Notes: a model not told the origin generated them from the sequence alone. Positions 16,771 to 21,898 are shown, numbered from the stretch's first letter. The stretch: DNA of 24,000 nucleotides from Leptotrichia sp. oral taxon 215 str. W9775 (GCF_000469505.1 NZ_KI272830.1:1-24000); one strand, 5' to 3'. Translations and numbers: made by a program.

Positions 16771-18084
16771 ATGCTGAAAAAGAATGAAAAAGTTATGTTA
16801 CTGATAGAAAAACTGAAATCTATAAATGAAAATATTTTTTTTGATTTAGTAATTGATAATTTTAATAATGAATTGTTAGAAAAGAAATTTGGAAAGCCAT
16901 TTAATGAAAATTCGATTTTCTTTGAAAGGGAAATTGATATTGTTGGAAAAATTGATGAATCAAATAAGGATTTTCTGAAAAAATTGATAGAAATGAATAA
17001 TTCATATGTTGAAAAGAAATGTTTGGATTTTACAAAAGAAGATTATTTGAAGGAATTCCAGAGGGATAAAATATTAAGGGTGAATGGAAGGGGCTTAAAT
17101 CCCGAACAGATGATAATGTATGTTTTAAGTACAGATAATCTGACTGATCTTTTGGAGTTTTTCAAGGAAGAATATTCTAAATATTTAGAAAAACTGGAGG
17201 AAAATAGGCAGGAAATATTGGAAAAGGAGCCGTTTCTGAAGCAGGCTCTGGAAGAACTGGAAAATGACACTTTTGAGAAGGAATTTCAGGAATATATAGA
17301 TACGAAGTATAAGAATGTAAAAAAGAGAAATTTGGAAAAATTATCACAAAAATATAATTTGGAATTTCAAAAGGAAGATAAAAACTTCATTGTCTCGGCA
17401 GATTTTTTAAGTTTTTTTGATGAAAAGATGAAGGAATATTTTTCAATGAGGGAAACTTTCAGGAGGGGATTTGAATTTTTTAATATAAATTCGTATAAAG
17501 TCAGCGAAAAAGAAAGGGACTTAGAAGAAATAATCACTGAAATAGAAGGAACGGAGCAGGAAAATAGATTTTTAAATTTGAAAAATGACAGGCTTGAAGA
17601 AGAAAACAGGAAATTGAAGGAAGATTTGAAAAAACATAGAAATAAAGAAGCTGAAAAGACAATTGAAAAACAGAAAAAAGAAATTGAAAAATTGAATTTA
17701 CAGATAAAACATCTTGAACAGGAAATTGAAAATATGGAACAGGATGAAAATCTAGAAGTAGTTGAAAATATAAATATAAAAGAGCTTTCTGAAGAGAAAA
17801 AGATAGATTTGACAAATCAGAATGTAAAGGTGATTGGTGGGAGATGGAGTCAAAAAGTTATTGAAAAAGCTGAAAAATATGCAGAAGAAAAGGGATTTAG
17901 AATTGAGTTTATCCATGCCACAGCAGTTTTCAGAAATTCAGATAAATTAAAAAATTCAGATATTATAATTTTTGATACATCCTATAATTCACATTCGGCG
18001 TATTACAAGCTGAAAAGTCATGGATTGAAAATATATAGAATTTCAACTTCAAATTTGGATAAAATTAAAAAGTTTTCTGAATAG
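16771..18084 (+). CDS. Coiled-coil protein with a C-terminal DUF2325-like domain; function unknown
   Basis: 437 aa. It has a long heptad-rich Glu/Lys central region (residues about 250-330). The C-terminal VKVIGGRWS...SDIIIFDTSYNSHSAYYKLK...IYRIS resembles the DUF2325 pattern. GGAGTGGGG SD is present. Confidence 0.7.
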   Translation: MLKKNEKVMLLIEKLKSINENIFFDLVIDNFNNELLEKKFGKPFNENSIFFEREIDIVGKIDESNKDFLKKLIEMNNSYVEKKCLDFTKEDYLKEFQRDKILRVNGRGLNPEQMIMYVLSTDNLTDLLEFFKEEYSKYLEKLEENRQEILEKEPFLKQALEELENDTFEKEFQEYIDTKYKNVKKRNLEKLSQKYNLEFQKEDKNFIVSADFLSFFDEKMKEYFSMRETFRRGFEFFNINSYKVSEKERDLEEIITEIEGTEQENRFLNLKNDRLEEENRKLKEDLKKHRNKEAEKTIEKQKKEIEKLNLQIKHLEQEIENMEQDENLEVVENINIKELSEEKKIDLTNQNVKVIGGRWSQKVIEKAEKYAEEKGFRIEFIHATAVFRNSDKLKNSDIIIFDTSYNSHSAYYKLKSHGLKIYRISTSNLDKIKKFSE

Positions 18085-18128
18085 TTAATAAATTTTTGAT
18101 GTTTCTAACTAAAAAAGAGAGGTGTAAA

Positions 18129-18656
18129 ATGAGTAGTAGAGTTTTGTTTTTATTGATTGCTGGAGTTTCTTTTGTTTTTGCTTCTATATTTCTAATAATT
18201 GGAATTATATATGAAAAAATATATCAAAATAATATGAAAGATTGTGATAAGGAAGTAGAAGGAGAAGTTTTAGAAGTTACGAAACTTAATTTTGGTAGTA
18301 GATTAACAGATACTTATGTCATATATCAATACATAGTAAATAATCATAAATATATAGTTAAACCTTATATTTTATTAAAAAATGCAGATATAAATCTAAA
18401 ATATACTGATTCTGAAAATGTTACTTGTATTACTTATATGGGTCGTCATGGTATGAGTGGCCAAACAAAATATCGTACAGGTGAAGATATTATAGTAAAA
18501 TATAATTCTAATAATCCTAAGAGACACGAAATTCTTAATGATAAAGATAAAATATTTGCATCTAAAGTTTTCAAAATAGTGGGAAAAATACTTATGATTC
18601 TCCCACTAATTTTCCTTATCATATCATTTTTTGTGAAGGGACAGGTTAATAGTTAA
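18129..18656 (+). CDS. DUF3592-like membrane protein (TM, beta-rich domain, TM), paralog 1
   Basis: ATG 18129 follows AGAGAGGTG; the ORF track start 18096 is TTG. It has N- and C-terminal TM segments. The core EVEGEVLEV...YQYIVNNHKYIVKP...IIVKYNSNNPKRHEILNDKDK is about 58% identical, by eye, to the 21320 gene product. Confidence 0.7.
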   Translation: MSSRVLFLLIAGVSFVFASIFLIIGIIYEKIYQNNMKDCDKEVEGEVLEVTKLNFGSRLTDTYVIYQYIVNNHKYIVKPYILLKNADINLKYTDSENVTCITYMGRHGMSGQTKYRTGEDIIVKYNSNNPKRHEILNDKDKIFASKVFKIVGKILMILPLIFLIISFFVKGQVNS

Positions 18657-18698
18657 AATAAATTACAAAATTAAGTATAATAGATGCAGGGGAGCTAT

Positions 18699-19172
18699 AT
18701 GAAAAAGAAAATAAAAGTCCTGATAAGTGCTTGCTTGTTGGGAGACAATGTGAAATATTCTGGTGGAAATAATCTTACACCAGAACTTGTTACATTGTTA
18801 GAGAAATATAATGTGGATATTATAAAAGTTTGTCCTGAGTGTTTTGGAGGTCTACCTATACCAAGAGTACCCTCTGAAATTAGAGAGAATAAAGTTTTTA
18901 GTAAGGATAATAGAGATATTACTGAAGAGTTTTTAGAAGGAGCTGAGAAAACTTTAAAAGTAGCTAAAGAAAATGAAGTTGATTTTGTTATCTTAAAAGA
19001 AAGAAGTCCTTCTTGTGGTAGTACACATATCTATGATGGGAGCTTTTCAGGAAATATTATTTTAGGACAGGGAATTACAGCTAAAAAATTGACTGAAGAA
19101 AAGATAAAAGTTTTCTCTGAAGAAAATTTAGAAGAAATTGAAAAATATTTAGTAGAATTAGATAAAAATTAG
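18699..19172 (+). CDS. DUF523 family protein (YbbK/TudS-like, putative Fe-S protein)
   Basis: The pattern KVLISACLLGDNVKYSGG ... CPECFGGLPIPR ... ILKERSPSCG is characteristic of DUF523, including the three-Cys cluster. ATG 18699 follows GGGGAG. Confidence 0.75.
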   Translation: MKKKIKVLISACLLGDNVKYSGGNNLTPELVTLLEKYNVDIIKVCPECFGGLPIPRVPSEIRENKVFSKDNRDITEEFLEGAEKTLKVAKENEVDFVILKERSPSCGSTHIYDGSFSGNIILGQGITAKKLTEEKIKVFSEENLEEIEKYLVELDKN

Positions 19173-20510: not shown

Positions 20511-20524
20511 AAAGGAGTTTTTAT

Positions 20525-21301
20525 ATGGATGAAATAATAAAAGAAAAATCTGATTTTCTTAAAGAAAAAATAAAAGAAATAAAAGAAAAAATTGTAAGAC
20601 CTTGTACAGAGTTTGAAACTAAGAATTTTGACTACGATGATGAAAATAAAGTTAGTTGGATAGGTAGAGTATTTCTATGTAAAGAAAATGAAGTTGAAGA
20701 AAGACCTAAAGACGATAAGGGAGAAACTATGTATCCTTTAGCACAATTTTATCTTTCTAATCTTCCTTATATACCAGAAGCTTTAAAAAAGTTTGAATAT
20801 ATAACTGTATTTATGGGAGAAGATTTTCCAGAATATAATGAAGAAAATGAAGGAGTTTCAAAAAATGGAGATGGTTGGCTATTGAGAACTTATACTAAGG
20901 ATGATGTCTTAGTTAAAAATGAATACCTAAGAGATGATAAATTTTGTCCAAAGGCTTATCCATTAGAAGCTAAATTTCATGCTGAAGACTATCCTGTTTG
21001 GGATGGTGGAGGACTTGATGAAGATTTAGAAATTGAAATATGTGATTTAGAAGAAGAATTTGATGATGAAGTAAGTTACTATCAAGATATTGGAAATGAT
21101 CATACATATTTACATAAATTTGGAGGTTATCCTTCATATTGCCAACCAGGTTTAGGATTAGAGGTTGAAAAAGGCTATAATTTTGTTTTCCAAATCTCAA
21201 GTGATGATGTTGCACAATACAATGTAGTAGATTCAGGAAGTTTAATGTTTTTCTATAATGAAAATGAAGATAAATGGATGATGTATTACGATTTTTATTA
21301 A
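20525..21301 (+). CDS. DUF1963 (YwqG-like) family protein
   Basis: The C-terminal signature HKFGGYPSYCQP ... FVFQISSDD ... VVDSGSLMFFYNE matches the DUF1963 pattern (hxxGGxPxxxQ ... lLqidsd ... gDxGxlyffi). AAGGAG SD is present. Confidence 0.65.
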   Translation: MDEIIKEKSDFLKEKIKEIKEKIVRPCTEFETKNFDYDDENKVSWIGRVFLCKENEVEERPKDDKGETMYPLAQFYLSNLPYIPEALKKFEYITVFMGEDFPEYNEENEGVSKNGDGWLLRTYTKDDVLVKNEYLRDDKFCPKAYPLEAKFHAEDYPVWDGGGLDEDLEIEICDLEEEFDDEVSYYQDIGNDHTYLHKFGGYPSYCQPGLGLEVEKGYNFVFQISSDDVAQYNVVDSGSLMFFYNENEDKWMMYYDFY

Positions 21302-21319
21302 TTAATAGGAGGGAATAGA

Positions 21320-21898
21320 ATGTTTAACTTAATAGCACCAGGATTAGATATTGATAAAATGGCCAGATCAGTAGCGGCCGGGGAAATAAGTGGGAAAATG
21401 ATATTTTCAATGATTGCGGGGAGTATTTTCCGATTTATTTTAATACTTTTAGTAATTGAAATTGTGATAGAAACAATGTATAAAAACCGTGTAAAAAATT
21501 ATAAAGGTGAAGTAGAGGGGGAGATTGTAGAAGTTCTGAATTCTGATAAAGGAGCAATGGCCGGGACTTTTCCGATATACCAGTATGAAGTGAATAATCA
21601 TAAATATATTGTTAAACCTCTTTTTTTGATTTTTGGATCTAAGTTAAATCAAAAATATCATGACAGTGAAGATATAACTTGTATTACATATAGGAGAAAG
21701 CATGGAGGAACTAGCAGAACAAAATATCATGAAGGAGAAAGCATAATAGTAAAATATGATATTGATGATCCTAAAAAGCATGAAATTCTTAATGATAAGG
21801 ATAAATTATTCGTATTCAAGGTAGCAAAAATCGGAATAATATTATCTATGATTTTTCCAATTGCCGTTTATATTATGACAATTTTTATAAAAGATTAA
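21320..21898 (+). CDS. DUF3592-like membrane protein, paralog 2
   Basis: Same architecture as the 18129 gene. Shared blocks are EVEGE, YQYxVNNHKYIVKP, ITCITY, IIVKY and HEILNDKDK. AGGAGGG SD is present. Confidence 0.7.
   Translation: MFNLIAPGLDIDKMARSVAAGEISGKMIFSMIAGSIFRFILILLVIEIVIETMYKNRVKNYKGEVEGEIVEVLNSDKGAMAGTFPIYQYEVNNHKYIVKPLFLIFGSKLNQKYHDSEDITCITYRRKHGGTSRTKYHEGESIIVKYDIDDPKKHEILNDKDKLFVFKVAKIGIILSMIFPIAVYIMTIFIKD

Follow-up and report, generated by a model that had tools for sequence, protein, structure and literature searches.

The subject of this work is a compact block of seven genes, g1 to g7 (positions 16771-21898), in a stretch of DNA from Leptotrichia sp. oral taxon 215 str. 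W9775 (GCF_000469505.1, NZ_KI272830.1:1-24000). We refer to the whole 24,000-nucleotide (nt) stretch as the window, and count positions from its first nucleotide. The block is an accessory insertion, and its genes have two separate histories. Genes g2-g7 are a cassette native to Fusobacterium and modular there, while g1 is a Leptotrichiaceae gene that is independent of the Fusobacterium cassette. Protein identities point to a recent movement of the cassette between bacterial families. We lean, with some reservation, towards reading the block as an accessory island of mosaic make-up, sited in a hot spot of recombination, the members of which act independently as protective genes.

All seven open reading frames (ORFs) lie on the plus strand, packed within 16771-21898. 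The first, g1 (16771-18084), encodes a coiled-coil protein of 437 amino acids (aa) with a weak DUF2325-like C-terminal domain. It is followed by g2 (18096/18129-18656; 186/175 aa), which encodes a DUF3592-type membrane protein and forms the first bracket of the cassette, and by g3 (18684/18699-19172; 162/157 aa), which encodes a predicted TudS-type [4Fe-4S] thiouracil/4-thio-UMP desulfidase. Start positions were chosen as called in near-identical contigs, where g2 has 175 aa from the ATG at 18129 and g3 has 157 aa from the ATG at 18699. The anchor gene of the cassette is g4 (19181-20137; 318 aa), whose cytoplasmic product combines an N-terminal alpha/beta domain with a divergent FGE-like (C-type-lectin-fold) domain. 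Two genes that are optional in the cassette come next, namely g5 (20139-20510; 123 aa), encoding a secreted protein with a Sec signal peptide and no lipobox, and g6 (20525-21301; 258 aa), encoding a DUF1963/TYPP protein of the YwqG family. The second bracket is g7 (21320-21898; 192 aa), which encodes another DUF3592-type membrane protein and is a diverged paralogue of g2.

An accessory insertion at a variable site

The window lies on contig C9 of its genome (G000 in our collection). Three congeneric species (G002, G003 and G004) lack the block, and in them the response-regulator (RR) gene lies 150-300 bp from g8, the gene that follows the block in the window; one of the three is represented by a complete genome whose flanks show 87% nucleotide identity. 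The inserted DNA is a 5.3-kb segment on the plus strand (16662-21951) between the RR gene and g8, flanks that are adjacent in all three congeners. Alignment of the spacer with that of G004 revealed two extra segments in the window. One is the block itself. The other is a separate variable segment on the same strand (16019-16622), also absent in G002, G003 and G004, which lies outside the cassette and carries g0 (16234-16566, plus strand), encoding a 110-aa protein with two transmembrane (TM) segments. The only part of the spacer that G004 retains is a 39-nt piece (16623-16661) holding the 3' half of a hairpin. Of the genomes in the collection, G005 is the closest relative (94% nucleotide identity); it carries the block, as do metagenome contigs of the same lineage. 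The assembly of G005 breaks inside the cassette: contig C61 ends at the end of g4 and contig C53 starts within g6, which leaves g5 and the initial two-thirds of g6 unassembled.

The RR-g8 neighbourhood is a variable insertion hot spot. We see this in the RR-g1 spacer, since sister contigs carry g1-g7 either without g0 or with another insert of 4 kb in its place. Contigs L031, L072 and L176, which lack g0 and are identical in other respects, have an RR-g1 gap of about 460 nt. The 4-kb insert (L177:2222-6103) places some 4 kb of small ORFs and an Amidase_3 gene in the spacer instead of g0, and downstream on the same contig the place of the WYL regulator region is taken by a SUKH/SMI1_KNR4 gene. 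Contig L026 carries a g4-g5-g6-g7-g8 variant that has no g1-g3; what precedes it is not the two-component system but a GmrSD_C fragment of 179 aa (L026:3553-4092) and a TetR-like gene. The flanks in the window comprise the histidine kinase (HK)/RR pair, g0, g8 and a WYL regulator two genes downstream. No terminal direct or inverted repeats were found around the block, the sole repeat being the paralogy of g2 and g7, and no integrase or transposase was found among the ORFs.

A modular cassette in Fusobacterium

A search with g2 covered 161 genomes of the order, from 30 genera. The g2 DUF3592 subfamily was found in 15 of 21 Fusobacterium species, including F. nucleatum SB042, F. canifelinum and sp. 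oral taxon 370, and otherwise only in G000 and G005, giving two genera of the 30. All 15 Fusobacterium copies lie in a cassette with g4 or a g4 remnant, with one cassette per genome, distributed over two sites. At the site that we call context II (five species), a Pnkp-like RNA-repair gene is followed by an optional g2 and then by g3, g4, g5 and a DUF3592 gene; g6 is missing from every cassette here. At the site that we call context III (ten species), SepF is followed by g4, optional g5 and g6, a DUF3592 gene and, further on, a GNAT gene. The flanks in Fusobacterium are either SepF and GNAT or the Pnkp-like gene and an autotransporter. The Pnkp-like gene (L056:6768-8951; also L201-L204 and L214) encodes a 727-aa protein with P-loop kinase, metallophosphatase and T4-type RNA ligase domains; in five Fusobacterium species, some 20 nt separate it from the cassette downstream.

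With D denoting a DUF3592 gene, the cassette variants are g4-D, g4-g5-D, g4-g6-D and g4-g5-g6-D, all four in context III, along with g3-g4-g5-D and g2-g3-g4-g5-D, and g5 is absent in cassettes L063-L065, L067, L078, L209 and L211. Context III has two more variants. In F. canifelinum, g4-g5-g6 are intact and the trailing DUF3592 gene is a 34-codon remnant. In one species (L208), g4 is missing and a g5 fragment, g6 and DUF3592 remain. A set of 70 metagenome loci seeded on g4 displayed three flank groups, namely these two and, as a third, that of the window, together with two further kinds of variant: g6-D-g3-g4-g5-D, and 2-kb insertions between g3 and g4. The BNJ-prefixed metagenome contigs were used for gene order and flank grouping only, because the matches in many of them are fragmented and frameshifted, probably due to long-read assembly errors. 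Across approximately 85 Fusobacterium and Leptotrichia loci, g4 is followed by a DUF3592 gene in nearly all, with gaps of a few bases; the presence of g3, g5, g6 and the leading DUF3592 gene varies independently for each. What recurs as the core is g4 together with a DUF3592 membrane protein.

Two DUF3592 genes (L033:3197-3784 and L040:8973-9509) are chimeras of the g7 type and the g2 type, which therefore indicates recombination, or gene conversion, between the bracketing genes. We conclude that the cassette is reshuffled by recombination between its two DUF3592 genes.

Recent transfer between families

The cassette proteins of the window are 91-95% identical to Fusobacterium representatives (g2 92-95%, g3 95%, g4 93%, g5 91-92%), and the 90%-identity clusters of g3, g4 and g6 contain proteins of F. 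periodonticum, F. pseudoperiodonticum and F. canifelinum. Among comparison genes, PurA is only 61% and KdtA 38-57% identical between the lineages, and Fusobacterium HprK and SepF gave no match in the window genome at E 1e-10. Because the cassette proteins are so much more similar than PurA, these identities point to a recent movement between families. The direction was likely from Fusobacterium to the Leptotrichia-like lineage, since the g2 DUF3592 subfamily is present in 15 of 21 Fusobacterium species compared to 1 of 51 other genomes of the window's family, the one being G005.

The history of g1 is a different one. It has homologues in four other genomes among 41 relatives, and none in the 12 Fusobacteriaceae genomes searched; the named homologues are all from 'uncultured Leptotrichia'. 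In G018 (83% identity) and G006 (56%), the g1 homologue stands alone among housekeeping genes, with a C26 peptidase and a P-type ATPase on either side, or with NAD-salvage genes, and none of the other six genes lies within 5-9 kb of it.

Linkage of the anchor gene was also assessed in distant taxa. A scan of species-representative genomes for the g4 family gave 80 loci, of which 74 lie outside Fusobacterium and Leptotrichia, in Paenibacillus, Cohnella, Chitinophaga, Clostridia, Bacteroidales, Escherichia albertii, Corynebacterium and others. Using tblastn, no homologue of g1, g2, g3, g5, g6 or g7 was found within 8 kb of these 74 loci. Hidden Markov models (HMMs) of the cassette families did not match any of the 419 neighbour proteins, and all-against-all clustering of these proteins produced no family recurring across genera. 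Pfam spot scans of 20 neighbours returned unrelated families (DUF6138, HEPN, LRR, DUF4253, GNAT, MGMT and ribosomal proteins).

The FGE-like anchor protein g4

The g4 family comprises 755 representative clusters. Pfam gave no match for g4 up to E 5, and thus no match to FGE-sulfatase (PF03781). A model predicted with AlphaFold (AF2) from a 41-member alignment reached a pLDDT of 94.5, and the top 40 Foldseek matches to it in the PDB were all FGE-fold proteins (FGE/EgtB/CalU17; probability up to 1.0), with TM-scores of 0.3-0.47 and root-mean-square deviations of about 9-11 Å. A profile of the g4 family matches around 50 residues of FGE chains, covering the FGE motif, at E 5e-8 to 2e-6, and the C-terminal half of g4 carries the (L)P(T)xxEWEY..GG motif that is common to FGE-fold proteins. 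The similarity to the FGE/SUMF1 fold, which is also that of EgtB, OvsA and CalU17, therefore lies in this C-terminal motif and in the exclusively FGE-fold structural matches.

There are also differences. The TM-score is only about 0.4 and the identity about 12%, and g4 has an additional N-terminal domain of about 180 residues. The catalytic copper-binding cysteine pair of human FGE is Cys-x4-Cys; in what may be its place, g4 has C273-x2-C276, following a GGDGG motif, and these cysteines are kept in just 56% and 88% of the 41 family members, respectively. Strongly conserved polar residues are W217, E258, D270, R311 and C276. No sulfatase (PF00884) scored above the cut-off in the 99.9%-complete, 2.3-Mb genome, so a classical FGE was ruled out, and the model is that of a divergent FGE-like fold.

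Elsewhere, the g4 domain occurs in multidomain proteins, fused to DUF1963, DUF4241, DUF4261, DUF5713, DUF6966 or TPR repeats, and in protein P0301 the g4 and g6 (DUF1963) domains form one polypeptide. Among 50,697 phage records g4 is absent, and the matches outside them amount to one distant plasmid hit (45% identity) and one marginal partial hit.

The TudS desulfidase g3

For g3 the assignment is clearer. It matches PF04463 (DUF523/TudS) with 152.9 bits against a cut-off of 34.7, over profile positions 1-140 of 141, and matches the TudS structure (PDB 6Z92) over its full length with E 1.9e-26. In alignment to 6Z92, all six catalytic residues are kept (Cys10/43/104, Glu45 and Ser101/103 in TudS_A numbering), within the conserved stretches SAC..., CPE... 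and SPSCGS. In TudS, the three cysteines are the ligands of the [4Fe-4S] cluster, and Glu45, Ser101 and Ser103 are catalytic (PMC10611767); the enzyme recycles 4-thio-UMP and detoxifies 4-thiouracil (PMC10611767, PMC12210855). On the strength of the full-length matches and the complete set of catalytic residues, g3 is predicted to be a bona fide TudS thiouracil desulfidase. It scored only 29 bits against the NCBIfam model of the C. difficile CD3072 type (cut-off 130), and a weak TudS-related match was all that an NCBIfam search of the block proteins returned. Where g3 differs from characterised TudS is in its setting, a mobile cassette among genes of undescribed function.

The TYPP protein g6 and its immunity-linked relatives

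With 25.7 bits against a cut-off of 23, g6 makes a marginal pass against PF09234 (DUF1963), and many of its close homologues bear a precomputed match to this family. It also has the motif FGGYPSYCQ, corresponding to the GGxP motif followed by a conserved Gln of the TYPP/YwqG superfamily (PDB 1PV5; Burroughs & Aravind 2014, PMC4275035). The part of that paper dealing with YwqG includes proteins of this family that are fused to a C-type-lectin-fold domain, and its authors proposed peptide- or protein-binding, chaperone-like roles. The listed fusion parallels both the adjacency of g4 and g6 and the P0301 fusion, with the difference that the two domains are separate adjacent genes in the block.

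One homologue, P0225, is 43% identical to g6 in its C-terminal part, over the whole length of g6 (E 5e-60), including the aligned GGxP...Q motif, and has at its N-terminus a colicin/pyocin immunity domain (PF01320, 82.5 bits). Its gene directly follows a Pyocin_S/Col-Pyo_DNase gene and the 86-aa immunity gene of the latter. The order pyocin S-type DNase gene, immunity gene, immunity-DUF1963/TYPP fusion was seen at L216:4340-7011 and L217:1816-4487. A pyocin-immunity fusion of the g6 subfamily is not mentioned in the section of PMC4275035 on YwqG fusions. In Formosa and Myroides, homologues of g6 lie near SMI1_KNR4 (SUKH) genes, and distant homologues are solitary or sit within arrays of other small genes.

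The DUF3592 proteins, g5 and g1

Against PF12158 (DUF3592), g2 scored 19.8 bits and g7 scored 24.6 bits, both under the gathering score of 25.3. The two are 49% identical. The layout of g2 is a TM segment, a beta domain and another TM segment, and the AF2 model of g7 (pLDDT 72) has an OB-like beta barrel between two TM helices, a layout that fits DUF3592. This model, of moderate confidence, had no significant match in the PDB. An alignment of DUF3592 proteins (A3) contains 48 invariant columns at about 50% identity, and the conserved polar residues are H94, D115-S116-E117, C121, H128 and H154-E155. DUF3592 genes, with a role left undescribed, have been noted within streptococcal LXG toxin loci (PMC12482557).

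A Pfam search with g5 gave no match up to E 5. The match of g1 to PF10087 (DUF2325), at 21.8 bits, is under the cut-off of 33.6, and one close homologue bears a precomputed match to that family.

Gene layout and expression signals

The stop-to-start gaps from g1 through to g7 are 44, 42, 8, 1, 14 and 18 nt, and a Shine-Dalgarno sequence of the GGAG/AGGAG type precedes all seven starts. After g0, on the plus strand, lies a strong terminator-like hairpin with a U tract (16595-16645, hairpin 16595-16640; dG -19.4 kcal/mol, z -5.96). These data reproduce what a first-pass annotation, made from the sequence alone, had recorded: seven genes on one strand with gaps of 1 to 44 nt, a strong Shine-Dalgarno sequence for each, and a terminator at 16597-16645. 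That annotation had listed the families in a slightly wrong order, the true order being coiled coil, DUF3592, TudS, FGE-like, secreted, DUF1963, DUF3592. Its DUF523 label stands and so, marginally, does DUF1963, while the two DUF3592 matches and the DUF2325 match fall below their cut-offs, and 'FGE-like' holds as a description of profile match and fold alone. It had also stated that no product has an assigned cellular role, which does not hold for the predicted desulfidase g3.

It is plausible from this layout that g1-g7 form a single operon, a reading with which the gaps, the Shine-Dalgarno sequences and the upstream terminator are compatible. A second plus-strand hairpin with a U tract (16659-16710, hairpin 16659-16699; dG -14.1 kcal/mol, z -3.57) lies about 70 nt upstream of g1 and coincides exactly with the left junction of the block, where it may act as a leader or an attenuator or may be the remnant of a terminator. 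No hairpin was found after g7. A scan of 15800-22200 against Rfam at a permissive threshold gave nothing relevant, and no riboswitch or leader family was matched, including at the 16659-16710 hairpin. Within g4, on the coding strand, there is a 12/12 match to the sigma-70 consensus (TTGACA, 17 nt, TATAAT; 19596-19624), which may be due to chance in AT-rich DNA or may be an internal promoter for g5-g7.

Further upstream in the window, an element of about 90 nt (12878-12968) lies between convergent genes. It has dozens of copies in both orientations in all five congeneric genomes, at 70-87% identity, and looks like a dispersed repeat of the genus, similar to repetitive extragenic palindromes (REP) or miniature inverted-repeat transposable elements (MITE).

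Discussion

The first-pass annotation offered two readings of the block, either a functional multi-component system associated with the envelope or an array of unrelated orphan immunity-like genes. A single seven-component machine is excluded, because g1 is independent and because g5, g6, g3 and either DUF3592 gene are lost in natural variants. The array reading is favoured, with the reservation that 'unrelated' is too strong a word, as a sub-cassette of TudS, the FGE-like protein, the 123-aa secreted protein, an optional DUF1963 protein and flanking DUF3592 proteins recurs across 15 species of Fusobacterium and some 60 metagenome contigs. The modularity of the cassette, its horizontal transfer, its hot-spot site, the mixed compartments of its products and the contexts of g6 relatives all argue for an array of immunity-like or detoxifying genes. 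In such an island, each member would act separately, as a protective function in its own compartment. TudS would strip sulfur from toxic thiolated pyrimidines in the cytoplasm, where the FGE-like and TYPP proteins would serve as peptide- or protein-binding modules of the kind that accumulates with, or becomes fused to, bacteriocin or toxin immunity domains. Protection at the membrane and in the periplasm would fall to the DUF3592 proteins and the secreted protein. On this view, the genes would be tightly packed and transcribed together because they are inherited as a compact cassette, and not because their products assemble into a complex. By analogy, the contexts of g6 relatives, the DUF3592 genes of LXG loci, the RNA-repair neighbour and TudS itself fit a protective, repair or detoxifying theme.

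Comparable gene sets are reportedly known. Zhang et al. 2012 (Biol Direct 7:18) are said to have described heterogeneous 'polyimmunity' or orphan-immunity arrays of polymorphic-toxin systems, and Ross et al. 2019 reportedly described acquired interbacterial defence islands in gut Bacteroidales. Like these, the block is a compact same-strand set of small unrelated proteins for different compartments, with strain-variable content, and has spread horizontally between taxa of one habitat, the mouth; relatives of g6 are moreover fused to, or lie beside, bona fide immunity domains. The block differs from them in that no member belongs to a curated immunity family and one member is an enzyme, and in that no toxin, recombinase or integrase lies near it.

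Several of these differences weigh against the preferred reading of independent protective genes. No toxin gene or toxin remnant was found beside the block, in the window or at the inspected Fusobacterium sites, and none of the seven proteins matched the curated immunity families of Pfam or NCBIfam (Imm, SUKH, PF01320). TudS, being an enzyme, is not an immunity protein of the binding type. The close pairing of g4 with DUF3592 in nearly all loci is a further difficulty, and the 48 invariant DUF3592 columns, which include His, Asp, Glu and Cys, are what one would sooner expect of a protein with a conserved biochemical function than of an immunity protein that evolves fast. Fusion of the g4 and g6 domains in some bacteria argues for a functional link between those two. 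It should be added that conservation within one genus cannot separate co-function from co-inheritance. The first-pass annotation took independent occurrence of the genes elsewhere as the mark of a random array; such independence holds for g1, and for g4 and g6 outside Fusobacterium, whereas inside Fusobacterium the sub-cassette linkage recurs, and the g4-DUF3592 pair is far more stable than a random array would have it.

This stability is the starting point of a possible but clearly less probable explanation, in which a Fusobacterium-specific multi-component module, made up of cytoplasmic g4 and DUF3592 and aided by periplasmic g5 and chaperone-like g6, senses or modifies a peptide, a protein or an envelope component. 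TudS would be a metabolic add-on, as FGE-fold enzymes and TudS both handle sulfur. The near-invariant succession of g4 and DUF3592 over three chromosomal sites at 70-97% identity agrees with a module of this kind, as do the intergenic gaps of 1-18 nt, the strongly conserved polar residues in both proteins, the single cassette per genome, and the g4-DUF1963 fusion P0301, a fusion type covered in the YwqG section of PMC4275035. However, natural variants dispense with each of g3, g5, g6 and the leading DUF3592 gene, F. canifelinum retains only a remnant of the trailing DUF3592 gene beside intact g4-g5-g6, and the L208 species keeps g6 and DUF3592 without g4. In addition, none of the 74 g4 homologues outside Fusobacterium (0/74) has a DUF3592, g5, g6 or TudS neighbour. 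A further reading is offered tentatively: g4 with one or two DUF3592 proteins might be a functional unit of oral Fusobacterium that had gone unrecognised, to which g5, TYPP and TudS are plug-ins. The unit could be an interbacterial-defence cassette, in which the DUF3592 genes serve both as envelope actors and as recombination handles for content swaps and for jumps between families, from Fusobacterium to Leptotrichia.

A novel anti-phage system, with g1 as sensor or effector and the membrane proteins as abortive-infection effectors, would suit a horizontally transferred block in an accessory hot spot, with a WYL regulator two genes downstream and a GmrSD fragment beside one cassette variant. 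We consider it unlikely. The defence-system check suggested by the first-pass annotation gave no system match, as PADLOC models run on the seven proteins and their flanks returned only a 20.9-bit match of g1 to the coiled coil of JetC, and this weak similarity, the only one that could be cited in favour, is coiled-coil noise. The search showed no effector domain of the nuclease, NTPase, TIR, SIR2 or a similar type, g1 is unlinked to the cassette elsewhere, and g4 is absent from the phage records. It is likewise improbable that the block is an envelope-stress regulon of the divergent OmpR-type two-component system (HK/RR with PepSY genes). In favour of such a regulon are the divergent orientation of block and RR-HK operon and the presence of one secreted and two membrane proteins among the products. 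This candidate was rejected, since congeners keep the two-component system without the block. The Fusobacterium cassette adjoins SepF or the Pnkp-like gene, with no two-component system adjacent, and the adjacency in the window is therefore a consequence of the insertion site.

None of the individual families is new, all being known or listed in catalogues, and an association of the g4 and g6 domains had been published, in the YwqG section of PMC4275035. The new elements are the recurrent Fusobacterium cassette as now defined, the DUF3592 paralogues that bracket it, the modular variants in which it occurs, its transfer between families, and a connection of the g6 subfamily with a pyocin-immunity locus.

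Both Fusobacterium and Leptotrichia abound in the mouth, and the former is intensively studied for its role in disease. A cassette that is present in most Fusobacterium species, varies among strains and has recently crossed families marks active gene flow in the oral community, and is a candidate determinant of competitive fitness. The correction of the one-system idea means that a seven-component machine need not be chased. Instead, the cassette gives handles on DUF3592, on the FGE-like family of g4, on the 123-aa secreted protein, and on TYPP/YwqG proteins, now tied to a pyocin-immunity locus. The immunity-TYPP architecture, which we describe as unreported, could show what bacterial TYPP domains do.

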